NCBI GenBank assembly: GCA_041694815.1
Contig: JBGFSC010000052.1
Span: 1 to 29,575 of the forward strand
From: Elusimicrobiota bacterium
GTDB taxonomy: Bacteria > Elusimicrobiota > Elusimicrobia > UBA1565 > JACRDR01
Direction: 5' to 3'
Length of the DNA stretch: 29,575 bases
Shown: positions 1-22,572 of the stretch, in pieces
Position numbering within the stretch: position 1 is the stretch's first letter
Layout of the letters: every line of letters starts with the position of its first letter
Program-made: the position numbers and the translations under genes
The notes under the pieces: generated by a model
The model's input: only the letters and a program-made list of their open reading frames with translations
Told to the model about the DNA's origin: nothing
Database searches by the model: none

Positions 1-3000
1 TGCTCGAATCGGTGGCGGTAATACCGGTGAGACCGGCGCCGTTTCCAAAGAACGCTGAGGCCGTAATAGAGGAAGGCGTCGTGATGTATCCACCAGCGCC
101 GGTCATCGTGATGGCTCCGCCAGTAAAGCTGGCCGAGCCGGCGCTGATGCCGTAGGTAACACCGAGCCCCCCGGCAGCGGTAACGGAAGGCGAGGCGGAG
201 AAGGTCTTAACACCCGAGAAGGTCTGTGCGTTGTTGAGCAGGGCCACATTGGCCGAAAGGGCCGTATCGCTGATATTCGTGATCAGAGAGCCGTTGAGCG
301 CAGGGTAATAACCCAGCGCGTCGAGCCGCACCAATTGATTGGCGCCGTTGAAGGCATTGCCCTGCAGCGTGACCGAGGAGGATTTGAGAGTTAAGGCGCT
401 CGCGTTCCCATCGCCCGAGAATTGCTCCGTGTTGGAATTGACCACCGAAATGCCGCTGGCCGTGCCGGTGGCCAAGGGAACGAAGCTCGAGCCGTTCAAA
501 CTGATCTTGAGCGCACCGTCGCCCGTGCTGTCGAAATAAATTCGTCCCACGGCAGCGGGCGGCGCGGCCGACAGGGCGCTTAAGGTCAGGCTTCCGGCGC
601 TGATCCCATAGGTGGCGGAAAGGCCTAAGGCGGCCGTGATGCTCGGAGCCGCCGAGAAGGTCTTAACCCCGCTGATGGTCTGGTTGGAAACGGTATCGAC
701 CATGTTGGCCGGAGCAGGGATATTGGTCAGCCCCGCGCCGCTGCCCGAGAAGAAGGGAGCATAGACGCCACCGGCCGCGACGTTGATGCCTGAGGAGGTC
801 CGCAAGCTGTACTGCGTATCACCAGTGGCGACGAAGGTTCCGCTGGAGGCGGTCAAACCGGAGCTAAAGGACGCCGAGCCGGCGCTGATGCCATAAGTTA
901 CCGCCAGGCCCGCGGCGGAGCTTAAGGTCTTAGCGCCGCTGATCGTCTGGTTCGACAAGGTGTCGACCATGTTGGCGGGGGCCGGAATATTGCTGAGTCC
1001 CGCGCCGCTTCCCGAGAAGAACGGGGCGTAGACCCCTCCGGCCAGCACTTGGATGCCAGAGGAGGCCTGTAAGCTGTATTGCGTGTTGCCCGTGGCCATG
1101 AGGGTCGCGCTGGAGGCGGTAAGGCCGGACGCAAAGGACGCCGAGCCCGCTACGATGCCGTAGCTGACCGTGAGGCTGGAACCCGTGATCGTCAGGGGGC
1201 CGGACATCGTGTCGCCGGCCTTCAAAACGTAGTTCGTGCCGGCCTGATACGCGCTCGTCTGTATGGTATTGTCCGGGAAGCGGATGAAGCCTCCGCTCGT
1301 CAACGAGAGCGGTCCCCCCCCGGCGATCTGAACACCCGAGGAGAGCCTTAGGGCGTAGGTAGCGTCGCCCGGCGTCGACGTGAACGTGCTCTTAAGGGCG
1401 GTGGAGCCGAACTGCGCGTCGCCGGCGATGTCGAGGAAGGTGCTAGGCGCGAGCGTTCCGACTCCGAGCGAGGCGGTGAATAATCCGGAATTCGCGAAAA
1501 AGGACCCGAACCGTGCGTTCGAGCGTCCCAGATTGACCGTGCCGTCGGCCACCGTGCTCGCGGTGCCGGCGCCGGAGCCGGCGTTAATCGGTATGATGTC
1601 CCCCGCGTCCGGGAAGCCTAGGCCAGCGTCGCCTTCCTGCCCCACCTGGGTCGCCACTCCTCCGTCGATCCCCATGCGGGCGATGCGCCCCAAGGCATTC
1701 AAGCGCAAGAAACCCGCGGAGCTTCCATGATCGACATAAAGGCCGGGATTTCCACCCGTGAGGATATGCAGCGGCGCGGAGGGGGCCGTCGTCCCGATGC
1801 CGACGTTGCCGGCCTTAACTACGAAGGAAGCGACGGCGACGGAGAAAGCGCCATCGACGAAGGTCACGCTCGAGGTGAAGGTCTTGACCCCGCTGATCGT
1901 CTGCGCGGCATTGAGCAGATCGACGTTCGACAGATTGGCGTCGGGCACCTTGCCGGCGCCGTCGAGTTTCAACAGTTGATTCGCGCCGTTGAACGCATTC
2001 CCCTGGAGGGTGACGGAGGAGGAAAGAAGAGTCAGGGGTGTGGCATTGCCGTCGCCCGAAAACTGCGCGCCATCGCGGTTGACCACCGAGATGCCGACCG
2101 AGGTGCCCGTCGCGATGGGTACGAAGCCGACGCCGTCGAGGCTGATTTTTAATGCCTTAGACCCCGTCGTGTCGAAATAGAGCATTCCTTGGCTGACCGA
2201 GCTAGGGGCCGATCCCAACCCGGTAAACACCAACGTGGAGGCGGTGATGCCGTAACTTACCCCGAGGCCCCCGGCCGCCGTGATGCTGGGGGCGGCGGTG
2301 AAAGTTTTAACCCCCGTGATGTTCTCGGCCCCGGCCAAATGGACGACGGTGCTATCGGCGGCCTTGGCCGCCAGATCGGCGCTCAGGCTGGTGACGGCCG
2401 ATTGGGGGATGCCCGTAAGTCCGCTTCCGGAGCCGAAAAACGCCGAAGCGTTGACCGAAGAGGCGGAGGTCACAAAGCCGCCAGCGCCCTGAAGCACAAC
2501 GGGTCCGGAGGTGAAGGTGGCTGAGCCGGCCTGGATGCCGTAGCTCACCGTGACGCTCGAGCCGGAAACGGTCAGGGAGCCGGTCATCGTATCGCCGGCC
2601 TTGGCGACCTTGCTTGAGTCGGTGGCGGTGATGCCGGTGATGCCGGCGCCGTTGCCGAAGAAGGCCGAGGCGGTGATGGAAGAGGGGGTCGTGATGTAGC
2701 CGCCGGGGCCGGTCATCGTGATCGCCCCGCCGGTAAAGCTGGCCGATCCGGCGGAAACTCCGTAGCTGACGCCGAGCCCACCGGCGGCGGTAACGGAAGG
2801 CGAGGCGGAGAAGGTCTTAATGCCAGAGAAGGTTTGTGCGTTGTTGAGTAGAGCGACATTAGCCGAAAGACGAGCGTCGCCCAAGCTGCCCTGGCTGATA
2901 TCGCCGGCGTCGAGACTGGTCAGGCCCGAACCATCGCCAAAGAAGGCGGAGGCGGTCATGGAGGCCTGGCCGACGACGTTGCCGGAGGCGCCGGTAAGGT

Positions 3001-5317
3001 TGATGGCGGCATTGCTCATACTTAAAGTGCCGGTCATGGTGTCGCCGGTCTTGGCGACCTTGCTTGAGTCGGTGGCGGTGATGCCGGTGATGCCGGCGCC
3101 GTTGCCGAAGAAGGCCGAGGCGGTGATGGAAGAGGGGGTCGTGATGTAGCCGCCGGGGCCGGTCATCGTGATCGCCCCGCCGGTAAAGCTGGCCGATCCG
3201 GCGCTGATTTCATAACTAACGGCAAGGCCCGTGGCGGCCGTTATGTTGGGTGAGGCGCTAAAGGTCTTAGCACCGGTGATCGTTTCAGCCCCTGCCAGAT
3301 GCACCACCGAGGCATCGGCCGCTTTGCCGGAGAGATCGCTACTCAGGTTGGTGACGGCCGACTGCGGGATGCCGGTCAGGCCCGAGCCAGAGCCGAAGAA
3401 GGCGTGGGCCGTAACCGAGGATCCGGGCACCGAGACGAAGGCATTGGCGCCCGAGACGGTGATCGAGCCGGCTGATACGCCGTAGCTCACGGCGAGCCCG
3501 GCGGCGGAGCTTAAGGTCTTAGCGCCGGTGATCGTTTCGGCTCCGGCCAGGTGAACAACGCTGGAATCAGCCGCTTTCGCCGCAAGGTCCGTGGTAAGGC
3601 CGGTCACCGCCGATTGCGGTATGCCCGTCAACCCGCTGCCCGAGCCGAAAAAGGCCGAGGCGGTGAATGAGGCCTGGCCGATCACATGGGCCGAGGCTCC
3701 GGTAAGATTCAGGGTGCCGCTCATCGTGTCGCCGGTTTTGGCGACCTTGCCGGGATCCGTGGCCGTAATGCCGCTGAGTCCGGCCCCGTTTCCAAAGAAC
3801 GCGGACGCCGTAATAGAGGAAGGAGTGGTGATGTAGCCATTGGGGCCGGTGAGCGTTACCGCTCCGCCGGTAAAGCTGGCCGAGCCGGCGCTGATCCCGT
3901 AAGAGACGGAGAGTCCCCCCGCCGCCGTGACGGAGGGCGACGCCGAGAAGGTTTTGACCCCGGAGAATATCTGGCTGTTATTAAGTAGCGCCACATTGGC
4001 GGAGAGGGCCGTATCGCTGATATTTGTGATCAGAGAGCCGTTGAGCGCGGGATAGTAGCCCAGCGCGTCGAGCCGAACCAATTGATTGGCGCCGTTGAAG
4101 GCGTTGCCCTGCAAGGTGACCGAGGAAGAGCGCAATGTTAGCGCGGTTGCGTTGCCATCGCCGGTAAATTGCAAGGGTTCGGAATTCACGGAAGAAATGC
4201 CGCCGGCCGCCGATCCGGTGGAGATCGGGACGAAGGAGCCCGAGTTGAGGCGGATCATTAAGGCGCCCAGCCCGCCGGCCCCGCCCGTGTCATAGTAGAG
4301 CCGAGCGGTGGCGGCCGCAGGCGGGGCGGAGAGAGGGGCGAGGGTCAGAAATCCGGAGGCCGAAATCGTGGAAGCGGTGGCCTGCCCGATTTGCAGGTCT
4401 CCGGTCATGGTATCGCCGGCCTTGAGCACGCGTCCCGCAAGGTCCGTGCCCAGGCCGGTGACGGCGCTTTGCGGAATGCCGGTCAAATTCGCGCCGCTTA
4501 AGGCCGGCAGGGCGCCGGTGCCGGTCAATTGGACCAGCTTGTTAGCAGTGTTGAATTCGTTGCCCTGCAGGGTGACCGAGGAGGACTTAAGCGTCAATGC
4601 GTTGCCCGAGGTGCCGTCGCCGCTAAATTGCCCGGCGTTCGAGGTGACCGAGGATAAGCCCCCGCCCCCGCCGGCCCCGCCCGTCGAGATCGACACGAAG
4701 GAGACCCCGTCCAAGCTGATCTTGAGCGCCCCCAATCCGTTGGTGTCGAAATACAGCATGCCGGGAGTGACGAAGCTCGGCGGGGCGGAGAGTCCGGAGA
4801 AGGCCAAGGTCGATAGGCTTACGCCGTAGGGCAATTGGAGAACCCCGGTGGTGGTGAAGGTCGCGACTCGCGCGCCGTAGCCCAGTTTCTCCGCCGAGAT
4901 CGAATGGAAGGCGTAGCTCGCGGCTCCCAATTGCTCGCGGGGGGTCAGCGTCTCGGGAGCGGGATTGATGAAGTTCGGATCGCTGGAAACACGCAATTCG
5001 AGGAATGTCGGCCCCGCCTGGAAGACGGAGGCGGGAATCCCGCCTACGGTGATCGAGCCGATCTGCGCTGTGTAGATGCCGTTGACTACGTTTAAGGCAT
5101 TGGCCCCGCTCCAGGTCTCGCTGAAAAGCAGCGTGCCGCCGGTCGGCGCGTTATAGATGTTGAACTGGAAGGAAAAGACGCCCGTCAGCGGATTGCCCGA
5201 GGGGTCGGCCAGCTTGCCCTGATGGTTGATCATCTGGGCGATCGCGGCGTAGGATGGGCGCAGCGGGGCGGCCAGGGCCAGCGCGGCAAGCAGGGCGGCG
5301 CGAAGGTTAGCTCGCAT
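1..5317 (-). CDS. Giant secreted phage-tail-fibre-like (trimeric adhesin-type) repeat protein, 3'-truncated by the window edge (>=1772 aa)
   Basis: Manual translation from ATG at 5317 gives MRANLRAALLAALALAAPLRPSYA|AIAQMINHQGKLADPSGNPLTGVFSFQFNIYNAPTGGTLLFSETW...NGIYTAQIGS...FLELRV...ETLTPREQLGAASYAFHSISAEKLG. The same frame reads ...LTGITATDSS at nt 31-2. The ORF track reports no stop-terminated ORF in this frame, consistent with a frame that stays open to the edge. It has a signal peptide and fibre motifs (K(A/T)GDTM(T/S)G x5, GNVGIGTTAP, IRFPDNTIQTSA) and is G/S/T/A-rich. Confidence 0.93.
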   Translation of the reverse strand, partial: MRANLRAALLAALALAAPLRPSYAAIAQMINHQGKLADPSGNPLTGVFSFQFNIYNAPTGGTLLFSETWSGANALNVVNGIYTAQIGSITVGGIPASVFQAGPTFLELRVSSDPNFINPAPETLTPREQLGAASYAFHSISAEKLGYGARVATFTTTGVLQLPYGVSLSTLAFSGLSAPPSFVTPGMLYFDTNGLGALKISLDGVSFVSISTGGAGGGGGLSSVTSNAGQFSGDGTSGNALTLKSSSVTLQGNEFNTANKLVQLTGTGALPALSGANLTGIPQSAVTGLGTDLAGRVLKAGDTMTGDLQIGQATASTISASGFLTLAPLSAPPAAATARLYYDTGGAGGLGALMIRLNSGSFVPISTGSAAGGISSVNSEPLQFTGDGNATALTLRSSSVTLQGNAFNGANQLVRLDALGYYPALNGSLITNISDTALSANVALLNNSQIFSGVKTFSASPSVTAAGGLSVSYGISAGSASFTGGAVTLTGPNGYITTPSSITASAFFGNGAGLSGITATDPGKVAKTGDTMSGTLNLTGASAHVIGQASFTASAFFGSGSGLTGIPQSAVTGLTTDLAAKAADSSVVHLAGAETITGAKTLSSAAGLAVSYGVSAGSITVSGANAFVSVPGSSVTAHAFFGSGSGLTGIPQSAVTNLSSDLSGKAADASVVHLAGAETITGAKTFSASPNITAATGLAVSYEISAGSASFTGGAITMTGPGGYITTPSSITASAFFGNGAGITGITATDSSKVAKTGDTMTGTLSMSNAAINLTGASGNVVGQASMTASAFFGDGSGLTSLDAGDISQGSLGDARLSANVALLNNAQTFSGIKTFSASPSVTAAGGLGVSYGVSAGSASFTGGAITMTGPGGYITTPSSITASAFFGNGAGITGITATDSSKVAKAGDTMTGSLTVSGSSVTVSYGIQAGSATFTSGPVVLQGAGGFVTSASSVNASAFFGSGSGLTGIPQSAVTSLSADLAAKAADSTVVHLAGAENITGVKTFTAAPSITAAGGLGVSYGITASTLVFTGLGSAPSSVSQGMLYFDTTGSKALKISLDGVGFVPIATGTSVGISVVNRDGAQFSGDGNATPLTLLSSSVTLQGNAFNGANQLLKLDGAGKVPDANLSNVDLLNAAQTISGVKTFTSSVTFVDGAFSVAVASFVVKAGNVGIGTTAPSAPLHILTGGNPGLYVDHGSSAGFLRLNALGRIARMGIDGGVATQVGQEGDAGLGFPDAGDIIPINAGSGAGTASTVADGTVNLGRSNARFGSFFANSGLFTASLGVGTLAPSTFLDIAGDAQFGSTALKSTFTSTPGDATYALRLSSGVQIAGGGPLSLTSGGFIRFPDNTIQTSAYQAGTNYVLKAGDTMSGPLTITGSSLTVSYGIVAGSASFASGLTASSATLMATGNTQYSLQASSGIQVLAGGVYAPFFSGSGAGLSNIPAPANMVDTLSNQTISGAKTLSSAAGLAVTYGISAGSASFSSGLTASSGTFVATGDTQYSLRTSSGINVAAGGVYAPFFSGSGAGLTNIPAPANMVDTVSNQTISGVKTFSAAPSITAALGLSATYGISAGSLTLSALSAAPPAAVGRIYFDSTGDGALKISLNGSSFVPLATGTASGISVVNSNTEQFSGDGNASALTLKSSSVTLQGNAFNGANQLVRLDALGYYPALNGSLITNISDTALSANVALLNNAQTFSGVKTFSASPSVTAAGGLGVTYGISAGSASFTGGAITMTGAGGYITTPSSITASAFFGNGAGLTGITATDSS
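2600..3203. repeat. Exact 154-bp intragenic direct repeat (2600-2753 = 3050-3203, offset 450)
   Basis: Base-by-base comparison: cttggcgaccttgcttgagtc...ggccgatccggcg is identical in both copies. Confidence 0.93.
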
Positions 5318-5696
5318 GCTCCCTCTTGCTCAAGAGGCCTCGGATGCGCCCCAGCAATTCCTCGGCGATGATCGGCTTCGTCAAATAAAGGTTCACGCCA
5401 CTTTCCCTGAGTCCCTGGATCTGCTCCTTATTTCCCGAATTGACGGTCAGCAAGATCAGGATCATGCGCTTAAAACGCGGGTCCTGGCGCAACTGCCGGG
5501 CGAACTCGACGCCGCTCATGCCGGGCAGGTTCCAATCGAGAAGGGCCACGTCGGGAATCCGGGAGTCGAGCAATCGGCGCGCCTCCTCGGCGCTGGTGGC
5601 CGATAAGATTTTGTAGCCCGCCGGCTGCAATATGCGCGCGATGATGCGCTGGTAATCGGAACTATCGTCGAGCACGAGAACCGATGGCTTATGCAT
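5307..5696 (-). CDS. Single-domain response regulator (REC)
   Basis: LVLDD, LLDWNLPGMSG, LLT and LTKP motifs. Overlaps the fibre start by 11 nt and the kinase stop by 8 nt. Confidence 0.93.
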   Translation of the reverse strand: MHKPSVLVLDDSSDYQRIIARILQPAGYKILSATSAEEARRLLDSRIPDVALLDWNLPGMSGVEFARQLRQDPRFKRMILILLTVNSGNKEQIQGLRESGVNLYLTKPIIAEELLGRIRGLLSKREHAS

Positions 5697-6735
5697 GTTC
5701 CTTTATAGGGAGAGTGAAATGGAATCGGCTACCGCGATGGGGGGCGCTTTCGGCCCAGATCCGTCCGCCATGAGCCTCGACGATGGCCTTGGCGATGTAA
5801 AGGCCGAGCCCAGAGCCATCCTCCCCGTGAAGACCTTTCCTAAGCCGCACGAATTTCTTGAACAGCCGCTCGATCTCACCATTCCCCAGGCCCACCCCGG
5901 TGTCGCTGACGGTGCAAAGGAGCTGAGAGCTTTGCGGATCGGGACCCATCGTTATCCTCACCTGGCCGCCCTCGGGAGTGAATTTGATCGCGTTCGAGAT
6001 TAGGTTGTGGAGCACGCGCCGGATCAGGGCGGCGTCGCCGCTGGCATGGCCGCGTCCCTGGGCGACCAGGCTCAGCTCGACGCGCGACTTCTCGGCCAAG
6101 GGCCGATAGAAGGCGATGAGCTCCCGGACGATGGCCGCTAGGTCTACGGGAAGCATTTGGGGATGCAGGGCGCCCGATTGAAGGCGCGCGGCCTGCAGCA
6201 TGTCCGAGATCGTCTCTTGGAGCTGACGGGCGTTGATCTTGAGGCGCTTGGCATCCTCGTTCCATCGGGCGACATCGCGCGGCCCCGCGCCGGCGCTTTC
6301 ATGAACCATCAGGTCCAGATAGGATTCCAGCGCCGAAAGCGGCGATTTGAGCTCATGCGCGAGCAGCGCCATCGCGTCCGAATGCTGACGCGCGGCGGCG
6401 CGCTGCCTGCGGACCCCGTAGGCCACCCCGAGTATCGCGAGGGCCGCGGCCGTCCATGCCCATGGATTCCAACGGGGTTTTGCCGGGGCGGGAGCGGCCG
6501 GCGGGGCGGCGCGCCGAGTCTCGCGAGCCTTCGCCTTCGTCGGCGGGGGCAGCGGCTTGGCTGGCACGCGGAAGCTCGTGGAGTAGCGGCGAGGGGGCGG
6601 CGCGATGGCTATGAACTGGGTCTCCGCCGTCGCGTACAACGTAGTGCTCTTATATTTAGGGCTTTGGGAATCCGTCGCGAATAAGGAGGAATGCGGAAAA
6701 ACGAGAACGGTCGCCAGCAAGGCCAGCGCTCGCAT
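5689..6735 (-). CDS. Membrane-bound sensor histidine kinase (HisKA + HATPase_c) with a Pro/Ala-rich extracytoplasmic segment
   Basis: H-box AHELKSP, N-box NLISNAIKF, G1 DTGVG, G2 GSGLGL. N-terminal signal-like segment and TM WAWTAAALAILGVAYGV. Confidence 0.93.
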   Translation of the reverse strand: MRALALLATVLVFPHSSLFATDSQSPKYKSTTLYATAETQFIAIAPPPRRYSTSFRVPAKPLPPPTKAKARETRRAAPPAAPAPAKPRWNPWAWTAAALAILGVAYGVRRQRAAARQHSDAMALLAHELKSPLSALESYLDLMVHESAGAGPRDVARWNEDAKRLKINARQLQETISDMLQAARLQSGALHPQMLPVDLAAIVRELIAFYRPLAEKSRVELSLVAQGRGHASGDAALIRRVLHNLISNAIKFTPEGGQVRITMGPDPQSSQLLCTVSDTGVGLGNGEIERLFKKFVRLRKGLHGEDGSGLGLYIAKAIVEAHGGRIWAESAPHRGSRFHFTLPIKEHA

Positions 6736-6746
6736 AAAGATGTTTG

Positions 6747-6775
6747 AGTATAGAGCGCGGACGGTGAGTTGTCAA
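6747..6775 (-). promoter_or_regulatory. sigma70-type promoter for the kinase-RR-fibre operon
   Basis: Minus strand TTGACA (6775-6770), 17-nt spacer, TATACT (6752-6747). ATG follows 11 nt later with no SD. Confidence 0.8.
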
Positions 6776-6838
6776 TATCTGCTAAATTTCTGCTAAATTT
6801 TATCTGGGATAAAAGGACGGTCAGCTTGGGAATAGGTA

Positions 6839-6871
6839 TTTACGCGCTCGAGGCGCGTAAAAGCCGCCGTT
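6839..6871. repeat. REP-like hairpin element (possible terminator) directly after a stop codon
   Basis: tttacgcgc-tcgag-gcgcgtaaa forms a 9-bp stem, followed by agccgccgtt. Related copies lie at 24899-24928 and 25006-25035. Confidence 0.7.
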
Positions 6872-7609
6872 TTAGTCATTCCACCTATACCCCAACCCCG
6901 CGATCGCCTCCAGCCTTTTTCCCAGCGGCCCCAAGTGCCGCCTTAGCCGCATGACGTGCTGGACCAAGGTCCTGGAGTTCCCCTTGAGCTTTCTCGGCTT
7001 CCATCCTTTCTTGAAGAAGTCCTCCCAGTGCACGACCCGGTTCGGGTGGCGCAGCAAGAAAGCCAGCACCTCGAATTCCTTACTCGTCAGGCGGCGCTCC
7101 TCGTAATCGATGCCGGTCTGCACATGGCATCGCCTCGAGCGCAGGTCCAGCAGGACCTGGCCGTCACGGCTGCGCAGCAGGTGTCGGGACCAGGATTGGG
7201 GCCGGGCGAATTGCTGCGCCGTCGACAGGGCCGCCTCCAGCCGGGCCGCCAATAGCTCCGGATCGAAGGGCTTGAGCAGGTAATCGTCCGCGCCCGAGCG
7301 GAGGACCGAAAGGGTCGCCGCCGCGTCGGCCCGAGTGAGAAAGAGTAGCGGCGCGCTTCTGGCGCGCGGGTGGCGCCGGATTTGCCGGACCAGCCCCTTG
7401 ATCTGATGCTTCCTAAACCCGTCGAGATCGACTACGAACAGGTCGGGTTTTTGCCTGTTGCAAGCCGCCCCGAGCAGGGCGGTAGACCGAATGTGGATCG
7501 GGTGGTAGTCCTGGCGGGTGAGGGCTTTCCGGCTGGACTCTAGGGGTTTGGGGTCGGATCCGAGCCAAAAAATGAGCGCCCGCGGCTCAGGGGTTGGATT
7601 TTTCGTCAT
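6872..7609 (-). CDS. OmpR/PhoB-family response regulator (REC + winged helix) with an atypical acidic pocket
   Basis: VVDLDG, FLT, GADDYLLKPF, LTSKEFEVLAFL, RTLVQHVMRLRRHL, GLGYRW. ATG at 7609 is preferred over TTG at 7612. Confidence 0.9.
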   Translation of the reverse strand: MTKNPTPEPRALIFWLGSDPKPLESSRKALTRQDYHPIHIRSTALLGAACNRQKPDLFVVDLDGFRKHQIKGLVRQIRRHPRARSAPLLFLTRADAAATLSVLRSGADDYLLKPFDPELLAARLEAALSTAQQFARPQSWSRHLLRSRDGQVLLDLRSRRCHVQTGIDYEERRLTSKEFEVLAFLLRHPNRVVHWEDFFKKGWKPRKLKGNSRTLVQHVMRLRRHLGPLGKRLEAIAGLGYRWND

Positions 7610-7725
7610 CAAAAGTTACCACAAAATGAAGGACTTTTTGGGGCATATCGAGTATTTTCAAATTTGTGCAGCGCCCTCGTGCCCATTTAACAAAAAATTC
7701 GCAGAGATGGGTAAGTCTACGCTAT

Positions 7726-10700
7726 ATGGTGAAGACGCGAGGGCTGCTTGCTCCGCTGCTTTGCGCGATCCTCGCCCTCCCCCCCGCCTCGCACTCGATT
7801 GAATCGAACAGCACGAGCTACAAAAACGCCCGTTCGGTGCAGGACGTTTCCGGCGGACGCAAGGCCTCCGCCTCTTTTTCAATCATCTCGGCCACCGGCG
7901 AGAGCGGGGTGGCGACCGCCCATGCCAGCCCCAACTTCAGCCTGCGCGCCGGGCATATGACCATCGACCTCTACCCCGGCATGATCAACGGTTTCGTGGC
8001 CACGCCGGGCGCGGCCCCCGGGACGATCAACCTGCAATGGATCGCTCCCGGCAACGACGCCTACGCCGACAACACCACCAGCAAGGAGTACGTGATCAAG
8101 ATGAGTTCGGTGGCCGCCAATTCGCCCGCCCTGTCCTGGGGCAAATTCATCGGCGCCGCTAGCGTGACTCCAGCGCCCCCGGCGCCGGCGGTCGAGGGCA
8201 CCTTGCAATCGATGACCGTGACCGGGCTCCAGGAGGGCATCGTCTATTACTTCGCCATCGCGGCCCAGGAATCCGACAGCCTCTTCGGCCCCCTCTCGGC
8301 CCAGGCCAGCGCCCAGGCCACCGGCACCAATGGCTGCGCCGTGGTGCGCAATGTCTGCCAGTCCGGCTGCCCGTATAACACGATCCAGGCCGGCGTCAAC
8401 GCCATCCCGAATCCCCTCATCGGTTACTCCTGCGTCATCGTGCGGGACTCGGCGGCCTACAACGAGAAGGTCGTGATCCAGAACTTCGTCAACAACGGCT
8501 CCAGCCTCACCGTGATGTTGGACCCGGCGTTGAGCGCGCACCCGGCGCTAGTCCCCCCGCCCGGCTCCGAGGCCGGTTTCGCCGTGGCGAACACGAACGT
8601 CAACATCCTCAACATCGATGTCCGGCCGAACGCCGCGCTCGGCTATGGAATCAAGGCCTCCTCCTCCAGCGTGATGATTTCGGGTGTCGTCATCGAAGGC
8701 GGGACTCATGTATCGGCGGCGGCCGTGGCCTTGTCCAGCGCGAGCCTGATCTCGGCCTCCAGCTTCACCGCGCTTTCGGCGCGCGGCGTCGATTTAAGCG
8801 GCGCGCAGAACAGCTCGCTGCGCGGGTCCTTCGTCCAGTCCCCCGCGGCCGTCTATGCCTGGGGCGGCTTGAACCTGTCGATTTCCTCCAACACCATCGC
8901 GCCGCTCATCAGCGGCACCCAGAACAGCTACGGGTTGTTCTTGGCGCATAACTCCGGCTCCGCGCTGCAACACAACAGCGTCTATTTCCGCTCTCCGGCC
9001 TCGGCGGGGGCCAATACGGCGTACGCGCTCTACGTGCAAAACGGCAGCGGCATCTTGATCGACCATAATCGGTTCAGCAACCCGGCGGTCGTGACCGGCG
9101 GCCATTATACCGGCGTCCGCATGGAGGCGAGCGCCGGATCGCAATTTAAGTTCAACGACGTCTACGGCGCCGGGACGGCTTTAGGCCGCGCCGTTCTGCT
9201 TGAGCTCGCCGGCGGCTCGAGCGCTTCCCAGATCAAAAACAATATCTTCGTGAGCTCCTTCGTCGTTTCCGTCGCGTCGGCGAGCTTGTCCGTCTCCGCG
9301 GATAGCCTCTCGGGAACGATCTCGGATTACAACAATATTTTCGCCGCCAACGGCGCGCATACCGAGATCTGGGGTTCGCAGAGCTGCACCTTTCCCGCCG
9401 GGCTCCAGGTGGTCACCTGCGCGGGCCAGGATTCCAACACCTTCGCCTTCGACCCGCTCTGGCATCGCATAGCTGCCGGCGCCGAGGATTTCCACCCCCA
9501 TTCCTCCGCCGGCCGTTACGATGCCGGTCTGGGGATCTTCGTCGCGGACGCCGACACGTCGTATACGATCGACGTCGCCGACCCCAGCGAATCCTTCGCG
9601 AAGGAGCCGTCCCCCAACGGCTCCCAGGCCAATCTGGGCTCCTACGGAAACACGGCCGAGGCCTCCAAGAGCACCCTGTATAAGATCGTGCGCCAGCCGC
9701 CCTATCGGCCTTTCGGCATCGACCTCGCCTCCGTGCTCGTGGGCACGGCGACGATCTCCTGGATGCCCGTGCGCTCCTTCCAAAACGGCTCCTCGTTCTT
9801 GAGCTCCGCGACCGCCAACGGCCTGGAGTTGACCGCTTATCGCGTCTATCGGGCGACGACGATGTTCAACGCCTCCTGGACGCTCATGGCGGTGCTCTCG
9901 ACAACGACATTCAGCTGGACGGATCTCGCCTCGGCGTCCTCGTACTACTATTGCCTGCAATCGGAGAACCCCTTCGGTCGCTCGAAGTATTCGATGATAC
10001 GCGCCCAGTCGGATAAGGCGGCGTATGTGCTCGCTCCGGACGGCTGGAGCCATCTGCATATCCCCGCGGGAGTGGCGGCGGTGCTTAAGGGCGACGGCGT
10101 CGACTCCACTACCGCCTACGATGTCGACGCCTCCACGCAGCCAGGCGACGCGGTCAAGAAGATCGTCAAGTCGGTCGATTTCCGCGCCATCAAGGGCGGC
10201 ATGCAGCCGACCCAACTTAAGCTTTCGGGGCTCGCGAGCCTCAACCTCCGCTATGACGTGCAGTCCGGCGGCGTGATCCCCGCCGCGGCACCGGTGACGA
10301 CGCCGGACCAGATGAGCGTCTACTGGAACAACTCCAACCGCTGGATGCAGCTCTACGGCAAGGTGGACACGAGCCGGCAGACCATGACGCTCAATACCGT
10401 CTATCTCGGCTCCTACCAGTTGCGGGCCGTCGAGCGCGTGCAGGCCTTCAGCTTCGATACGGCTGGCATCTCGAACCGCCTGATCACCCCCAACGGAGAC
10501 GGCAAGAACGATGCCGTCGTCTTCACCTTTGACAACCCGCGCGATTCCTCGGTGACCGGCAAGATACTCGACTTAAAGGGCGCGCGCGTGGCGGACATGA
10601 GCGCGGGCCCGGTGAGCAACAGCTTGATGTGGGACGGGCGTTCGCAGGGCAACGTCGTCGCTTCCGGCGTCTATATTTACCAGCTCGAGGCGGAGGGCAA

Positions 10701-10734
10701 GATTCTTAACGGCACGGTGGCGGTGATCAAATGA
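7726..10734 (+). CDS. Secreted multidomain protein: small N-terminal Gly/Ser motif, FN3-like domain, parallel beta-helix, C-terminal gliding-motility/T9SS type-B-like sorting domain
   Basis: ATG 7726 gives signal peptide MVKTRGLLAPLLCAILALPPASHS. FN3-like INLQWIAPG...VTGLQEGIVYYFAI. Beta-helix lead-in YNTIQAGVNA and closing motif DFHPHS...IDVADP...EPSPNG..ANLGSYG. C-terminus ITPNGDGKND...WDGR...SGVYIYQL...GTVAVIK. Confidence 0.88.
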   Translation: MVKTRGLLAPLLCAILALPPASHSIESNSTSYKNARSVQDVSGGRKASASFSIISATGESGVATAHASPNFSLRAGHMTIDLYPGMINGFVATPGAAPGTINLQWIAPGNDAYADNTTSKEYVIKMSSVAANSPALSWGKFIGAASVTPAPPAPAVEGTLQSMTVTGLQEGIVYYFAIAAQESDSLFGPLSAQASAQATGTNGCAVVRNVCQSGCPYNTIQAGVNAIPNPLIGYSCVIVRDSAAYNEKVVIQNFVNNGSSLTVMLDPALSAHPALVPPPGSEAGFAVANTNVNILNIDVRPNAALGYGIKASSSSVMISGVVIEGGTHVSAAAVALSSASLISASSFTALSARGVDLSGAQNSSLRGSFVQSPAAVYAWGGLNLSISSNTIAPLISGTQNSYGLFLAHNSGSALQHNSVYFRSPASAGANTAYALYVQNGSGILIDHNRFSNPAVVTGGHYTGVRMEASAGSQFKFNDVYGAGTALGRAVLLELAGGSSASQIKNNIFVSSFVVSVASASLSVSADSLSGTISDYNNIFAANGAHTEIWGSQSCTFPAGLQVVTCAGQDSNTFAFDPLWHRIAAGAEDFHPHSSAGRYDAGLGIFVADADTSYTIDVADPSESFAKEPSPNGSQANLGSYGNTAEASKSTLYKIVRQPPYRPFGIDLASVLVGTATISWMPVRSFQNGSSFLSSATANGLELTAYRVYRATTMFNASWTLMAVLSTTTFSWTDLASASSYYYCLQSENPFGRSKYSMIRAQSDKAAYVLAPDGWSHLHIPAGVAAVLKGDGVDSTTAYDVDASTQPGDAVKKIVKSVDFRAIKGGMQPTQLKLSGLASLNLRYDVQSGGVIPAAAPVTTPDQMSVYWNNSNRWMQLYGKVDTSRQTMTLNTVYLGSYQLRAVERVQAFSFDTAGISNRLITPNGDGKNDAVVFTFDNPRDSSVTGKILDLKGARVADMSAGPVSNSLMWDGRSQGNVVASGVYIYQLEAEGKILNGTVAVIK

Positions 10735-12683
10735 AGCGCCTGCTCTGGATCGCCGTCCTGCTCGGTTCCGTCGGAGCGCTCGAGGCCGCCTTCGAGGATC
10801 AGGGCGCCGGCGCGCGGGCTCCCGGGATGGGCAACGCCTTCACGGCGGTGGCCGACGATGCCTACGCCATCTACTACAACCCGGCGGGCTTAACGCAGCT
10901 CGACCGCCCCCAACTCTCCATCGCCTACTCTAAGTTGTTCCTGGGCCTCTCCGACAACTCGGATATCAGCCTCTCGCAACTCACCTGGGCCTCTCCCCTC
11001 AACAACGGCAAATGGGGCTCCATGGGGTCGGCCTACCAGCGCTTCAACGTGGGCGGGCTCTACAACGAGCAGGTGATTTACCTTTCCTACGGCCGGGCCG
11101 TTTGGCAGCGCCCCGAGCAGAAGCTGTCCTTGGGCCTCAACGCGAAATATCTCAACCATGCATTCACGCAGTTATCGGAGGCGTTTAACGCCTGCGACGG
11201 GCTCAATTGCGGGCAGGGCCCGGACCCCGTGCTCTCGGGGGCCAACAGCAAGGGTGCCATCGACGCCGATATAGGCCTAATGTACCAGAGGGGCCGCTAC
11301 ATCATCGCCGGCTCGGTGCTGCACGTGCTGCGGCCCAACGTGGCCTTCGGTTCGCAGCAGGACCGGCTGCCCATGAATTACCGCCTCGCGGTGGGCTACC
11401 GCGCCCTGTGGATGAACATCACCTCCGAATTGCGGATGGACCGTTCCCCTTCCGGCTCGATGGACAAGGATATACTCCTGGCCGGCGAGCGCTTCTTCCC
11501 CACCCTGGAGTACGGGCAATTCGGCCTGCGGGGCGGACTGGGCTTCGGCACGCGCGAGTACCGCCAGCTCTCCTTGGGAGGCTCGTATCGGATCAACAAG
11601 ATACAGTTCGACTACGCCTTCCTGATGCCCCTCGGGATGTTCAACGCCACCGCCGGAACGCATCGCATGGCGCTGGGCTTCCTTTTCGGCGGGCGCACCC
11701 CGGAGGAGGAGCTCTCGGCCAATCTCTTGGAGCAGATGAAGAGGGTGCGTGAGGCCGGCAAGGGCATCGACGTCTATGAGCTCGAGAAGCAGGTGCGCCC
11801 TCGCGACTTAGACGAGCCAGATCTCGAGCCCGTGCGCAAGGAGATCGAGGCGGGCTTCTACCGCAAGGCGCAGCTGCTGCTGCAGGATATGGTGCGCACG
11901 CGGCCGGACGATCGGGGGCTGGCGAGACTTTTGACGCGCATCAACACCGTCGTTTCCTTCTACCATGAGTACCCCGATCCCCAGGAGGTCTGGGAGAAGG
12001 CGCTGGCCAAGGGCGTTTTGTCCTTCATGCAGGGCCGCGACAGCCGCGCGATGCTGCAGACCTCCTACGCGTTCAGCCTGAGGCCCAGCGACATGAAGCT
12101 CGACCGCTATCTCGCCAAACTCGAGGAGGCCACCCAGGTTCGCGCCCTTAGGCTGCAGTCGGATTCCTCGCGCAACATGATCGAGGAGCTCTTCTACCGC
12201 TCCGAGACGGCCTTCAACCGCAGGGACTACGCGCGCGTGCTCGACCTGACCAACGACATCCTGGCGCTGGAGCCCGATAACGCGACGGCCTTGGAGCGCA
12301 GCGGCTCCATTTACTACCTGCTCAAGCAATACGACAAGGCGCTCTCCGCCTGGAAGCAGGCCTTGGCGGTGGAGCAGAATCCGGTCGAGATCGCCTCGCT
12401 GCAGAACCATATCGTCGAGGTGGAAAAGAAGATGCAAGCCGCGGCCTCCCTGCCGGGCGGCATACCGCAGCCGCAGGCCGCGGCGGCGGAGCCGGCCCTG
12501 CCGCGCCCAGACGCCCGCGTCATCGAGGGGCTCTATCAGAAGGGCGTGGAGCATTTCGCCCGGGGAGAGCATTTACAAGCCGCCTCCGCATTTATGAAAA
12601 TCCTCCAAATGGACCCCGGCAACAGCCAGGCCAAGAAGGCGCTCGAGAGAATCAAGCTGAATTTCCCGGTGAGCAACCCGTGA
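10731..12683 (+). CDS. PorV/PorP-like (FadL-superfamily) outer-membrane beta-barrel fused to C-terminal TPR repeats
   Basis: Signal peptide, then AFEDQGAGARAPGMGNAFTAVADDAYAIYYNPAGL (PorV/FadL-type plug motif). Amphipathic strands end at FDYAF...HRMALGFLF. TPR-like helices (LALEPDNATALERSGSIYY; ILQMDPGNSQAKKAL). ATGA overlap with the upstream gene. Confidence 0.85.
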   Translation: MKRLLWIAVLLGSVGALEAAFEDQGAGARAPGMGNAFTAVADDAYAIYYNPAGLTQLDRPQLSIAYSKLFLGLSDNSDISLSQLTWASPLNNGKWGSMGSAYQRFNVGGLYNEQVIYLSYGRAVWQRPEQKLSLGLNAKYLNHAFTQLSEAFNACDGLNCGQGPDPVLSGANSKGAIDADIGLMYQRGRYIIAGSVLHVLRPNVAFGSQQDRLPMNYRLAVGYRALWMNITSELRMDRSPSGSMDKDILLAGERFFPTLEYGQFGLRGGLGFGTREYRQLSLGGSYRINKIQFDYAFLMPLGMFNATAGTHRMALGFLFGGRTPEEELSANLLEQMKRVREAGKGIDVYELEKQVRPRDLDEPDLEPVRKEIEAGFYRKAQLLLQDMVRTRPDDRGLARLLTRINTVVSFYHEYPDPQEVWEKALAKGVLSFMQGRDSRAMLQTSYAFSLRPSDMKLDRYLAKLEEATQVRALRLQSDSSRNMIEELFYRSETAFNRRDYARVLDLTNDILALEPDNATALERSGSIYYLLKQYDKALSAWKQALAVEQNPVEIASLQNHIVEVEKKMQAAASLPGGIPQPQAAAAEPALPRPDARVIEGLYQKGVEHFARGEHLQAASAFMKILQMDPGNSQAKKALERIKLNFPVSNP

Positions 12684-13990
12684 GCATCCGCGTAAAGTTG
12701 ACGCTGGTGCTGACCCTCTGCGTCACCGTCACTACCGCGTTGAGCAGCCTCTGGTTCCTCCAATTGCAAAAGCGGAATATCCGGGCCATGGAAGGGGAGA
12801 AGACCCGGATGCTCGCGGAAAACGCCGTGCGCATGGGATCGGAATCGCTGTTGGCCAAGGACTCCCTGATGCTGCTCGACTATTTGAGCTTCCTCAAGCG
12901 GGTTTATCCGGAGGTCCAGCACGCCCGCGTGCACGCCAACGGCAAATGGATGGACGTGGGGCCGGCCCAGCAGGAAGACCCCGAACGCTACGAGTTGCTC
13001 GAGCGGAAGGTGGCCGAGCCGCTTAGCGTCCAGTTATGGCTTAAGAAGGCGATGCTGCAGAAGCGGCTCGAGGACGCGGAACGCGCGGCGCGCCGGCAGG
13101 TGCTGTTTTTCGCGGCCCTGCTTTCGGTCGCCGGCTTCTTTTTCGCCGTGCTCCTGGGAGGGTCGCTGACCCGCCGCATCACCGAGATCCAAAAGGCCAT
13201 GAAGACGGTGGGGGAGGGGCGCTGGACGGGAGAGATACGGCGGCTCGGCAACGACGAGATCGGCGCCCTGGCCCGCGGGTTCAACGAGATGCAGAAGAAG
13301 CTCATGGAGCTCGACGAGATGAAGAAAACATTCGTGGCCTCGGTGACTCATGAGCTGCGCTCCCCCCTTGGAGCCATCAGTACGCACGTGCGCCGCATCC
13401 TGTCGGGCCCGGCGGAGCTCTCTGGCGAGGTGCGCGGCAGCCTCGAGCGCATCCAGGAAAATACCTCCCGCCTCGACCTGTTCGTCAGCAATCTCCTGGA
13501 GATGTCCAAGATCGAAAAGGGAAAGCTTCAGTTCGACCCCGTGGCGGCCAACCCGGGCGAGGTGGCGGAGAACACCGCGATCTTCTACAAGCCGCGCGCC
13601 TCCGAGCTCGGTCTGCAGCTGCAATGGGAAATCGGCAAGGACCTGCCGATTTTGAGGATGGACCCCAATCTTATCGGCCAGGTCCTGGCGAACCTGATCT
13701 CGAACGCGTTGAAGTTCACGCGGCCGCCGGGGCAGGTCCGCCTGTCCGTGCAACAGCGCAAGGACCAGGTGGTTTTTTCCGTGCAGGATTCCGGGATCGG
13801 CCTATCCGCCGAGGACCTCAAACGCCTTTTCGTCCCGTTCGAGCGCATCGCCAACCCCGTCAAGGCCTCCGGCACCGGCCTGGGACTGGCCATCTCGAAG
13901 GCCATTATTGACATGCATCACGGCGAAATCGGCGCCGAATCGGCGCTCGGCAAAGGCAGCCGATTCTACTTCTCGCTGCCGGTGCGGTAA
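12680..13990 (+). CDS. HAMP-domain sensor histidine kinase
   Basis: Two TM segments, HAMP (DEIGALARGFNEM), THELRSP, NLISNALKF, DSGIG, GTGLGL. GTGA overlap with the barrel-TPR gene. Confidence 0.95.
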   Translation: MSIRVKLTLVLTLCVTVTTALSSLWFLQLQKRNIRAMEGEKTRMLAENAVRMGSESLLAKDSLMLLDYLSFLKRVYPEVQHARVHANGKWMDVGPAQQEDPERYELLERKVAEPLSVQLWLKKAMLQKRLEDAERAARRQVLFFAALLSVAGFFFAVLLGGSLTRRITEIQKAMKTVGEGRWTGEIRRLGNDEIGALARGFNEMQKKLMELDEMKKTFVASVTHELRSPLGAISTHVRRILSGPAELSGEVRGSLERIQENTSRLDLFVSNLLEMSKIEKGKLQFDPVAANPGEVAENTAIFYKPRASELGLQLQWEIGKDLPILRMDPNLIGQVLANLISNALKFTRPPGQVRLSVQQRKDQVVFSVQDSGIGLSAEDLKRLFVPFERIANPVKASGTGLGLAISKAIIDMHHGEIGAESALGKGSRFYFSLPVR

Positions 13991-14037: not shown

Positions 14038-14439
14038 CTATTCCTTCGGAACCGCTTCCAGCAGTTTGGTGACCTTCGCCTTCAAACGCACGATGTCCAC
14101 GGGCTTGGTGATGTAATCAGTCGCGCCCGCCGCCAGGCTCTTTTCGACGTCTCCGAGCTTGTCCATGCTGGTGCACATGAGTATCTGCAGGTTCTTGTTC
14201 TTAGGATTGGCCCGCATCGCCCGGGCGGCGTCGATTCCAGACATTTGGGGCATGTTGACGTCCATGATCACCAGGTCGAAATTCTGTTTATTGGCCATAT
14301 CGGCGGCCATCTGACCGTTGTCGGCCTCCAGGAGCTCATGGTCTTCGGAAGCGACGACCTCGCGGACGAGCATCCGATTCGGCATTTCATCGTCGACGAT
14401 CAGTATCCGCTTTTTCTTTTTCTTTTCGCCAAAGAACAT
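14038..14439 (-). CDS. Single-domain response regulator (REC)
   Basis: ILIVDD, IMDVNMPQMSG, MCT, ITKP. ATG 14439 has a GGGAG SD-like sequence upstream; the track start 14457 lies too close to the predicted -10. Confidence 0.92.
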   Translation of the reverse strand: MFFGEKKKKKRILIVDDEMPNRMLVREVVASEDHELLEADNGQMAADMANKQNFDLVIMDVNMPQMSGIDAARAMRANPKNKNLQILMCTSMDKLGDVEKSLAAGATDYITKPVDIVRLKAKVTKLLEAVPKE

Positions 14440-14460
14440 GACGCTCCCGCGGGCCATCGA

Positions 14461-14489
14461 ATTTTGGCCCTTTTGCCATTTCCTGTCAA
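14461..14489 (-). promoter_or_regulatory. sigma70-type promoter for the 14439 response regulator
   Basis: Minus strand TTGACA (14489-14484), 17 nt, CAAAAT (14466-14461). Confidence 0.6.
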
Positions 14490-14505
14490 GGGCACTCTTT
14501 AATTT

Positions 14506-14546
14506 CTCGCGCGAATCTCGAACTTCGTCGCGCGAAGCGCGACGAA
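14506..14546. repeat. GAA-loop hairpin repeat, copy 1
   Basis: ttcgtcgcgc-GAA-gcgcgacgaa (14524-14546), preceded by ctcgcgcgaatctcgaac. A second copy lies at 24963-25004. Confidence 0.8.
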
Positions 14547-14605
14547 ACCCGGCGCCGACACCATGATCGGCGCCAAGGCCGTTGTTAAGCCGGAGGGGAT
14601 GCCAC

Positions 14606-14634
14606 TTGCCGGCCGTTCATTTCGCGTTTATACT
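14606..14634 (+). promoter_or_regulatory. sigma70-type promoter for hybrid kinase 1
   Basis: TTGCCG (14606-14611), 17 nt, TATACT (14629-14634). Supports the ATG at 14653. Confidence 0.65.
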
Positions 14635-14652
14635 AGGGTCGATTCAAAGGGC

Positions 14653-15771
14653 ATGACCGAAATTTTGCTGATAGAAGACGAGTCCGTATTCCGCCTCCTC
14701 TGCGTCGATGCGCTTAAGGCCGAGGGATTTGTCGTCCACGAATGCTCAACCATCGCCGAAGCCCGCGCGCAGCTGGAACGCAGTAGGCCGGACCTCGTGC
14801 TCTTCGACATATCCCTCCCGGACGGCAACGCCGTTGACCTGGTCCGCTGCATCCAAGGATCGAATCCAATGCAGATTCCCTTCATCTTTTTTACCGGCAG
14901 CCAAGATGACGTGAAAATGCGGCTCGAATGTTTTCGGCTCGGGGCCTCCGACTACATTAAAAAACCCTTCGCCGTCGAGGAGCTCATCGCTCGGATTCGC
15001 ATTCATTTGGAGATCCAGCGCACCAAGGGCCAGCCCACCGAGATCGAGGGACGGCTCCGGCGGCGCGAAGCGATGCATCGGAACATGACCGACCGCATTG
15101 TTCATGATTTAAGGGCGCCGATCGCCTCGATCAAGGGCATGCTGGAATTGATCAGTCGGCAGGAGTGTCTTAGCGAGGCGGAGTTCGAATATTTCAACCA
15201 TATCGGGTCCATGGCGGATTTCATGCTTTTAATGCTGACGGACCTCTTGGACATAGGCCGCGCGCAGAGCGTGGGTCTTCACGTGACGCCGACAAAGGTC
15301 GATCTCTCCCAATTGGAAGTTTCGGTGCGGAAGTTTTTTTTGGGCTCCGGGGCGATTCGCGGGATCAAGCTCGAGTTGAGCATAAGCACCGAATTCTGTT
15401 TCATCGAGACCGATCAAAACCTGCTCTTCCGGATATTGGCCAACCTCCTCTCGAACGCGATTAAGGTTTCGATGCCTGGCCAATCCGTCATACTGGAATC
15501 GGGGCGCGGCGAGGGCGGGCGGGTTCGTTTTTGTGTCTTGGACCGCGGGCCCGGCGTCCCCGAATCTGAGAAGGAACGGATTTTCGAGAAGTTTATTACC
15601 GCCCGTAAAACCGGAGACCGGTGGGAAAGCGGGACCGGAATCGGCCTCAGTTTTTGTCGACTGGCGGCCGAGTCGCTTCGTGGAAAAGTATGGGTGGAGG
15701 ATCGTCCCGGAGGCGGCAGTCGCTTTATTTTGGAATTCCCGGCTGCCATTCTCGATTCCCAACGCCTCTAG
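14653..15771 (+). CDS. Cytoplasmic hybrid REC-HisKA-HATPase kinase, paralog 1
   Basis: ILLIEDE, LFDISLPDG, YIKKPF, VHDLRAP, NLLSNAIK, DRGPG, GTGIGL. No TM segment. Confidence 0.93.
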   Translation: MTEILLIEDESVFRLLCVDALKAEGFVVHECSTIAEARAQLERSRPDLVLFDISLPDGNAVDLVRCIQGSNPMQIPFIFFTGSQDDVKMRLECFRLGASDYIKKPFAVEELIARIRIHLEIQRTKGQPTEIEGRLRRREAMHRNMTDRIVHDLRAPIASIKGMLELISRQECLSEAEFEYFNHIGSMADFMLLMLTDLLDIGRAQSVGLHVTPTKVDLSQLEVSVRKFFLGSGAIRGIKLELSISTEFCFIETDQNLLFRILANLLSNAIKVSMPGQSVILESGRGEGGRVRFCVLDRGPGVPESEKERIFEKFITARKTGDRWESGTGIGLSFCRLAAESLRGKVWVEDRPGGGSRFILEFPAAILDSQRL

Positions 15772-15819
15772 AAGCCTGTCCGATCATCGACCGGCGGACA
15801 ACATATCCAGCGTTGGTAC

Positions 15820-15848
15820 TTGTGAACTCGTAATTTTATCTTTATACT
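15820..15848 (+). promoter_or_regulatory. Possible sigma70 promoter for hybrid kinase 2
   Basis: TTGTGA (15820-15825), 17 nt, TATACT (15843-15848) in an AT-rich gap. Confidence 0.55.
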
Positions 15849-15875
15849 GGTGCCATTACGGCCCATAGCGACGCG

Positions 15876-17006: not shown

Positions 17007-17009
17007 ACT
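16981..17009 (+). promoter_or_regulatory. Internal sigma70 promoter for the RR-pilB-pilC-pilin operon
   Basis: TTGACA (16981-16986), 17 nt, TGtTAAACT (extended -10, hexamer 17004-17009). Predicted +1 falls at about 17016, the GTG start. Confidence 0.75.
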
Positions 17010-17015
17010 CCCTGC

Positions 17016-20861: not shown

Positions 20862-20864
20862 CCT

Positions 20865-22519: not shown

Positions 22520-22520
22520 C

Positions 22521-22549: not shown

Positions 22550-22572
22550 TTTACCGTCTATTAGTGCGACAA

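Follow-up and report, generated by a model that had tools for sequence, protein, structure and literature searches.

A candidate fibre-display system on a type IX-like export pathway in an Elusimicrobiota bacterium

The window analysed here, a stretch of 29,575 nucleotides (contig JBGFSC010000052.1) from an Elusimicrobiota bacterium, opens with seven genes that raise the question of how a giant fibre protein may be held at the cell surface. They encode the fibre, a protein ending in a C-terminal domain (CTD) similar to those of type IX secretion system (T9SS) cargo, an outer-membrane barrel with a tail of tetratricopeptide repeats (TPR), two histidine kinases, a receiver domain and an OmpR-family regulator. 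An initial annotation had proposed that the barrel holds the CTD protein, that an N-terminal motif of this protein captures the N-terminal domain (N-domain) of the fibre and that the coupled kinases report assembly or contact. All seven genes were confirmed at their places within positions 1..13990 (Table 1). We interpret the locus as a two-part fibre-display device working on a T9SS-like pathway in the style of type B cargo, with a probability of about 0.68. The conserved system is real, and sensing is the weakest part of the interpretation. In what follows G000 is the genome of the window (97.8% complete), C its contigs, G with other numbers other genomes, and L locus stretches.

The adaptor and the fibre

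The motif of the CTD protein, here called the adaptor, is a Gly/Ser sequence of about 60 residues in three repeats. Its linkage to fibre genes was surveyed in 40 relatives of the order with two profiles, A1 built from 20 adaptors and A2 from 59 fibre N-domains, mostly from loci chosen on the fibre; A1 matched 28 of the 40 genomes and A2 34. The 48 adaptor rows outside G000 became 47 when one duplicate was merged, and linkage was counted on the fibre rows of adaptor-bearing contigs together with all rows of five control genomes. Among the fibre matches listed, 32 of the 47 adaptors lay at 10 kb or less from a fibre N-domain, as did 16 of the 29 adaptors from outside the profile training set. 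For the five control genomes the figures were 7/7 adaptors against 12/112 barrels (117 barrel rows, from which 5 split pieces were dropped). Five of the six relatives without a fibre N-domain were also without an adaptor. Two layouts recurred: 14 loci, spread over 12 genomes and three families, showed a single operon of adaptor-CTD protein, barrel-TPR, HAMP kinase and fibre (including L061, whose adaptor lies just outside the stretch), and at 15 loci one to three fibre genes were followed by the adaptor protein. The gene-neighbourhood survey that the initial annotation had called for thus found the linkage to be conserved. In L047, L059, L070, L074, L075 and L080, three different fibre genes stand in tandem before one adaptor gene, which suggests that the three repeats may recognise heterotrimers or that the fibres are alternative tips.

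The pair was also found in other phyla. A pattern scan for the core of the 80-130 aa adaptor subtype returned at least 123 stretches, 79 of them with flanks, and 77 were kept after dropping two overlapping duplicates. Among the matches listed, a fibre N-domain was found in 54 of the 77 loci, encoded on the same strand in 53 and separated by less than 300 bp in 42, and in 32 of the 38 loci of at least 12 kb, the chance rate being about 3.5% per 16-kb interval (56 fibre matches in 25.5 Mb of five such genomes). Most of these records are titled as Planctomycetota or Verrucomicrobiota, some as Chloroflexota or Acidobacteriota. The SprA-like profile described below gave no match in four of five adaptor-bearing genomes (Planctomycetota, Verrucomicrobiota, Chloroflexota, Acidobacteriota), which argues that the adaptor-fibre pair is independent of the T9SS-like route; a match at E 1e-49 was obtained in the Gemmatimonadetes genome of L187 (G163). 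Records titled Bifidobacteriaceae (L141, L154, L158, L172, L199) also carry adaptor and fibres; the adaptor tail of L199 resembles Verrucomicrobiota records, so these labels may be wrong.

The adaptor-fibre pair is a general module, the same adaptor being fused to other C-terminal tags in other lineages. The adaptor profile matched 498 library representatives, many of them stand-alone proteins of 80-130 aa with other tails, and gave no PDB match. In 150 representatives the tag was a CTD in 28, of LPLIxR type in 16, of IFxDGFE type in 11 and dockerin-like in 8, the other 87 being different or cut; these apparently lineage-specific surface tags we take to be sorting signals. In the relatives, 25 of 30 complete adaptor open reading frames (ORFs) and 0/53 complete fibre ORFs carry a CTD. 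In the 3522-aa CTD protein encoded next to the C15 fibre, a start resembling the adaptor was seen by eye only, the adaptor profile giving no match.

The adaptor was also weakly matched by the first 80 or so positions of CPR_pilus_PamT, the profile of a pilin from the candidate phyla radiation (CPR), in 22 of 34 members (positions about 7-87, 14-46 bits), and comparison of the window's motif with PamT gave E 0.002-0.02. The adaptor stays outside full-length PamT as defined by 241 positions, a cut-off of 240 and a pam operon. Adaptor proteins without a CTD end in a domain of about 160 aa that is common to tandem genes of 210-310 aa ahead of CTD-barrel-kinase-FliFG cassettes (seen across L010, L053, L076, L084, L288:2271-6231, L290 and L293). 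Proteins with this domain may form a donor-strand pilus that is tipped by the adaptor, in the manner of PamT.

The fibre is composed of 15% Gly, 14% Ser, 14% Ala and 11% Thr, without Cys, and its shaft is a mosaic of short modules whose motifs recur 4-6 times; it matches BppL_N, the Chlorovirus glycoprotein repeat and PHROG tail and virion families. Its N-domain, of about 120 residues, was predicted by AlphaFold2 as a beta-sandwich with a predicted local distance difference test (pLDDT) value of 86, or 85 as three copies, a number set by us. Foldseek gave no match for it at E 0.001; the best fold match (Z 7.3, root mean square deviation 3.4, 85 aligned residues) was to generic sandwiches, and phage matches were weak. 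Word-index protein searches with the N-domain returned one protein each and were too insensitive to indicate rarity. The model of the Bdellovibrio mosaic adhesive trimer (MAT), Bdello_MAT_N (NF053851), was matched by 53 of the 59 family members, all under the cut-off of 60 (27-34 bits) and in its first half only (positions 10-78 of 162). The signal peptide, conserved N-domain, mosaic phage-like shaft and several paralogues per genome are common to both groups, and by sequence comparison the fibre is to be classed as a relative, not a member, of the MAT family. Fibre C-terminal pieces were seen at contig ends of G000 (C7:18086-21384, C41:34045-34970), with a membrane/TPR gene no more than about 2 kb behind each of them; these genes resemble protein O-glycosyltransferases, Pfam giving TPRs only. 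One of these pieces may be the rest of the window's Ser/Thr-rich fibre; no exact overlap joins the cut fibre to either.

A complex of three fibre N-domains and one adaptor was modelled with a score of 0.79 (runs of 0.79, 0.80 and 0.79), against 0.04 for the best of three controls. Of 157 solved complexes 116 attained the score mark, as did 2 of 215 mismatched pairs, a calibration that is only roughly applicable to this job of three plus one chains with our own alignments. The modelled interface has about 300 contacts, and the runs agreed in at least 92% of contacts, with a partner pLDDT of at least 72; with an unrelated partner, the adaptor had a pLDDT of 30. In the model all three protomers touch the adaptor, each through residues 8-17 and 100-113, and adaptor residues 5-61 are in the interface, which holds the invariant Gly12 and Pro104 and the near-invariant Leu14 and Arg105 of the fibre family. 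Since the N-domain has no close solved relative and the adaptor no PDB match, recall of a like complex is unlikely. On this modelling the adaptor probably binds the fibre N-domain, in line with the capture that had been proposed, and the structure prediction suggested for it gave a confident interface. With the linkage across phyla and the controlled model, the clip formed by adaptor and fibre is well supported.

The carrier barrel and a SprA-like pathway

The CTD protein scored 27.8 bits with CHU_C (cut-off 27) and also holds beta-helix and FN3 parts. The barrel encoded next to it gave 53.6 bits with PorP_SprF (cut-off 22.3) and 68 with PorV_fam, under the cut-off of 90, and the TIGR03519 cut-off was also missed; it is therefore assigned to the PorP/PorV superfamily, and PorV proper was rejected. 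What had been annotated as a PorV-like barrel-TPR protein stands as to superfamily and TPRs. Residues 7-93 match PorV (6h3i_F) at E 3e-5, and the C-terminal TPR tail is kept across the cassette family; a barrel fold predicted without alignment had a pLDDT of 40 and was not used. G000 has 23 PorV_fam matches at 22 loci and 21 CTD-bearing ORFs, and by our own reading a CTD gene neighbours the barrel at 18 of the 22 loci, at one of them with a fibre gene in between, so that pairing of cargo and barrel is the rule in G000. By analogy with type B cargo, the barrel would bind the CTD of the adjacent protein, which would stay anchored. CTD-only genes of about 130-150 aa were seen directly before barrels (L287-L290, L292, L293; G000 C54:92605-93039), and G000 C8:75192-78500 holds eight tandem CTD-like domains with an OmpA/MotB-like match and a MotA-like neighbour.

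A SprA homologue was found elsewhere in G000 as an ORF of 1829 aa (C19:8829-14318), matched by TIGR04189 in three ordered stretches, under its cut-off. A profile of this ORF and 20 relatives matched Flavobacterium johnsoniae SprA (6h3i_A) at E 1.6e-37 in three colinear stretches, unlike a single SprA-like sequence, which gave no PDB match; SprA_N clusters were seen in the atlas for the homologue. One region of it was found in 114 of 121 genomes of the phylum, with ORFs mostly of 1700-1900 aa. Four of the seven genomes without it are also without PorV_fam and three have PorV_fam, as do 8/8 SprA-bearing comparison genomes. The homologue (L260-L279) is kept in many genomes of 1.0-1.5 Mb; lptF/lptG-like genes are its divergent neighbours at 17 of 21 loci, and at 15 of 21 a ComF-like gene comes after it, names given by sequence reading.

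GldM was not found in the 121 genomes with two models, an absence that is only likely, no control genome being above the cut-off. GldL and GldN were not found in G000, and no control genome carried either family above cut-off. For GldK, G000 gave only eleven partial matches to the FGE (formylglycine-generating enzyme)-sulfatase type, of at most 82 bits against 350 and with no positive control. These lie at C19:1563-4973 and on other contigs, three of them just upstream of the SprA homologue; GldK was rejected as their identity, the matches being partial and not conserved beside sprA. No Peptidase_C25 match for a PorU sortase was found in G000, nor in any control genome. The window itself, as had been annotated, holds no core T9SS gene: the sprA and porK-N families were not found among its ORFs (23 scanned with Pfam, 13 with NCBIfam). 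Thus the suggested whole-genome search for SprA and PorKLMN succeeded for SprA and gave no match for GldL, GldM or GldN, with no positive control.

The remark that the organism does not look like a Bacteroidota member also held. Five of the ten top adaptor proteins are named Elusimicrobia or Elusimicrobiota and none another phylum, which places the host, indirectly and by names, outside Bacteroidota and the Fibrobacterota-Chlorobiota-Bacteroidota (FCB) group. For want of a motor match, with no positive control, and for the wrong phylum, the system was not filed as T9SS, and a canonical T9SS was rejected. Rather than standing by itself, the window's locus is a client cassette, one of those belonging to a SprA-like pathway that spans the genome.

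Kinases, FliF-FliG cassettes and gene layout

The family defined by the periplasmic domain of the HAMP kinase gave 23 matches, 22 of them directly after a barrel gene in a sample that is biased outside G000; the remaining one follows a lone TPR gene facing away from the CTD-fibre-barrel run of C15. Of the 43 kinase ORFs in G000, 3 stand directly behind a barrel, each of them a member of this family. The barrel-kinase gene coupling is real. From this coupling the kinase may sense the carrier, a role that we hold as tentative and rate slightly below even.

Paralogous cassettes, several to a genome, carry a FliF-FliG fusion (YscJ_FliF_C, FliG_M and FliG_C) in place of the fibre. Such a fusion comes after a kinase of the HAMP kinase family in the closest paralogue (C41), in three other genomes (G004, G032 and G036) and in 7 of another 8 stretches, often with MotA/MotB near, and 13 of the 17 fusions lie at 6 kb or less from a barrel. 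FliG_C was found in 44 of the 121 phylum genomes, and no PF00771 match for the FlhA export gate was found in G000, four controls being above the cut-off. FliG is missing in two families (0/37 and 0/34) that keep the SprA homologue (36/37 and 28/34), so the FliF-FliG rotor is not required for export, and FliF-FliG with MotAB as a required export motor was rejected on this ground. Pfam found no FliF-FliG or Mot gene in the window. At C38:58886-100225 of G000, a CTD protein of 13,779 aa precedes genes for barrel-TPR, FliF-FliG fusion and MotA/MotB, an arrangement that recalls an adhesin mounted on a motor.

The two divergent runs with overlapping stop and start codons seen in the initial annotation were confirmed (8 nt at 5689-5696, 11 nt at 5307-5317 and 4 nt at the two rightward joints), their gene order recurs in relatives, and the OmpR regulator does lie between them, reading leftward. 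The leftward sigma-70 site between the OmpR gene and the kinase matches 11/12 consensus positions; the scan gave 2 sites against 0.3 in shuffles. No Rfam match was found, and the one tandem repeat is weak. Receiver orthologues have 64% identity in G032 (before a fibre) and 53% in G004 (no fibre), the leftward kinase has an orthologue at the same place in G004 (48%), and the OmpR regulator at the same place in G004 (51%) and G032 (44%). In G032 the regulator, the receiver and the closest fibre N-domain (50%) share a 3.4-kb contig, on which the kinase was not seen. Past the cassette, positions 14038-25466 of the window hold a receiver, three near-paralogous receiver-kinase hybrids, a PilB/GspE ATPase, PilC/GspF and several pilin-like genes; these pilin and receiver genes are a possible output of cassette signalling.

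Table 1. Features of the window and FliF-FliG fusions of related cassettes
Feature	Position	Strand	Remarks
Giant fibre	2..5317	-	1772 aa seen, open at 3' (contig end); signal peptide
Fibre N-terminal domain, predicted adaptor-binding base	4838..5251	-	Ig-like beta-sandwich
Stand-alone receiver domain	5307..5696	-	PF00072; overlaps fibre start
Histidine kinase	5689..6735	-	HisKA+HATPase; short Pro/Ala-rich N-terminal extracytoplasmic part
Sigma-70-like promoter site	6747..6775	-	Ahead of the kinase-receiver-fibre run; consensus match only
OmpR-family regulator	6872..7612	-	PF00072+PF00486
Adaptor-bearing cargo (CTD protein)	7666..10734	+	Likely start ATG 7726; signal peptide, adaptor, FN3, beta-helix, FN3-like part, CHU_C-like CTD
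Adaptor motif	7792..7989	+	Three beta-repeats, each ending in Gly, at the start of the mature CTD protein; alignment of 20 adaptors
PorP/PorV-superfamily outer-membrane barrel with helical TPR tail	10731..12683	+	Candidate dedicated carrier
HAMP histidine kinase	12680..13990	+	HAMP+HisKA+HATPase; periplasmic domain defines the family
FliF-FliG fusions	G000 C41:19244-20836, C38:102228-104180, C15:13180-14919, C7:3-815, C34 end; L008, L285-L294		

Alternatives and significance

In the fibre-display interpretation, fibre and cargo would cross the inner membrane by Sec, in keeping with the signal peptides seen. Three fibre chains would trimerise, and the three-repeat adaptor of the cargo would pair its beta-strands with those of the three N-domains, each repeat binding one protomer, as modelled. 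The cargo CTD would then pass the SprA-like translocon onto its own adjacent barrel and stay bound, as homology and the type B precedent suggest. Since the fibre is without a CTD, it would travel out as a passenger or be captured once it has been exported separately, and its variable tip would point outward as an adhesin. The periplasmic TPR tail of the barrel may contact the HAMP kinase, which would report loading of the fibre or pull on it. Display of the fibre by way of CTD and barrel we consider likely.

The precedent comes from the T9SS. Its type B cargo stays on a PorP-like barrel, which binds periplasmic PorE (PorE-PorP-PG1035; PMC9143113), PorE has TPRs (PMC12204202), and SprF-SprB is a dedicated PorP/SprF carrier-cargo pair (PMC12635249). 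In the Elusimicrobiota genome, likewise, CHU_C-like CTD cargo adjoins its own PorP/PorV-superfamily barrel and a SprA homologue is present. The periplasmic TPR partner, in contrast, is fused to the barrel instead of being a separate PorE, the SprA homologue has about 1700-1900 aa against 2403, there is no GldL/M/N or PorU match (no positive control), the barrel is coupled to a kinase, and the cargo is predicted to carry a CTD-less passenger. The cassettes with FliF-FliG resemble a flagellar MS/C-ring with stator, ending in a FliF-FliG protein with MotA/MotB near, and differ from it in having one fused chain, no FlhA and linkage to carrier barrels; motAB and fliG without flagella have been noted as enigmatic in free-living Elusimicrobiota (10.1101/2022.07.08.499144). 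In the CPR Pam pilus, PamT is placed at the pilus tip by prediction and treated as a donor-strand acceptor, and a tail fibre-like gene is consistently found beside pam operons, with no role assigned and the word trimer absent from the main text (PMC13278184). Likeness to the Elusimicrobiota locus lies in the adaptor-like start of PamT and in the conserved tail fibre-like gene; there is no CTD, barrel or outer membrane in that system.

Several observations weigh against the fibre-display interpretation. In the window itself, fibre and adaptor sit in divergent operons. Among the fibre matches listed, 15 of the 47 adaptors have no fibre at 10 kb or less, twelve of these being on short contigs or near contig ends. 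The other three are real exceptions: G004 repeats the divergent layout of the window but lacks a fibre gene next to it, and its genome (88% complete) gave none elsewhere, for G014 no fibre was found in the 15 kb covered, and in G036 the fibre is 22 kb off. Many fibre loci are without an adaptor nearby (e.g., L044, L050, L054, L055, L058, L072), and 7 of the 12 relatives without an adaptor match still have fibres, so that either divergent adaptors were missed or other anchors exist. The loci of the first survey were picked on the fibre, and the 40 relatives are not independent of each other. Finally, with no Gld motor match found, the energy step known for SprA is left unexplained.

The linkage and the complex model fit equally well an adaptor that binds transiently, acting as a chaperone for folding or trimerisation or as a piggy-back signal for export, with the fibre free or otherwise anchored. 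Many adaptors do stand alone and fibre loci without adaptor exist; however, adaptors are fused to apparent lineage-specific surface tags and to a predicted tip pilin, and the modelled interface is large, and we consider such a transient role unlikely. A somewhat smaller chance is given to a core that is a surface-contact or motility machine of cargo, barrel-TPR, kinase, FliF-FliG ring and MotAB, with the fibre as an exchangeable tip and the window as a motor-less signalling duplicate. The succession of barrel, same kinase family and FliF-FliG fusion in the paralogous cassettes, the closeness of fusions to barrels and Mot genes, and the lack of FlhA in G000 speak for it, but the window has neither fusion nor Mot gene, the 14 fibre operons have a fibre and not a fusion after the kinase, and two families without FliG keep SprA. 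Such a machine adds to fibre display more than it excludes it. Chance clustering of surface and signalling genes in a variable island, with the model score as an artefact of Gly/Ser-rich beta-strands, is highly improbable: surface genes do cluster, as the barrels near fibres show, and the motif is low in complexity, but adjacency holds across unrelated phyla without barrels or SprA match, the four-gene order is fixed, and the controls, the unrelated partner among them, did not reproduce the model. The linkage counts have already largely refuted it.

We return to fibre display, for which the initial annotation had named three adverse outcomes: unconserved linkage, no predicted interface, and a Bacteroidota host with a canonical T9SS. 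None of these occurred. A wider reading joins both halves of the work. The three-repeat adaptor would be a cross-phylum clip for MAT-like trimeric fibres on the anchor of each lineage (CTD and barrel here and the pilus tip in CPR, with Planctomycetota, Verrucomicrobiota and Chloroflexota using other tags), and a Gld-free SprA-carrier pathway, with its barrel-TPR wired to kinases and to a flagellum-free FliF-FliG/MotAB rotor, would be a counterpart of the gliding machinery made from different parts. We regard this combination as possible but rather doubtful; if true, the translocon-carrier core would be older than the gliding motor and separable from it.

In the literature searched, from which subscription journals are mostly absent, we found no account of a type IX/SprA pathway in Elusimicrobiota, of the adaptor-fibre pair, of a motor-less SprA or of a FliF-FliG fusion with PorV; PMC7031533 and PMC8542988 name type IX, in the parts available, in their references only. 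The novelty lies in the adaptor-fibre module, the export half alone being a variation on the type B T9SS, apparently motor-less and in a phylum where it was not expected. SprA, carrier barrels and CTD cargo are hereby placed in a phylum outside FCB, where T9SS genes have been stated to be absent (PMC11285876), and the apparent lack of a motor is relevant to the proposed origin of the T9SS as part of the gliding machinery (PMC12635249). The clip would explain how such trimeric fibres attach to cells. It puts forward a named partner, open to testing, for a fibre domain that in the Bdellovibrio MAT presumably binds a surface element not yet identified (PMC10769870), as well as a role for the tail fibre-like gene beside the CPR pam operons (PMC13278184), and its parts, a peptide of 60 residues and a domain of 120, are small enough for testing in E. 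coli.

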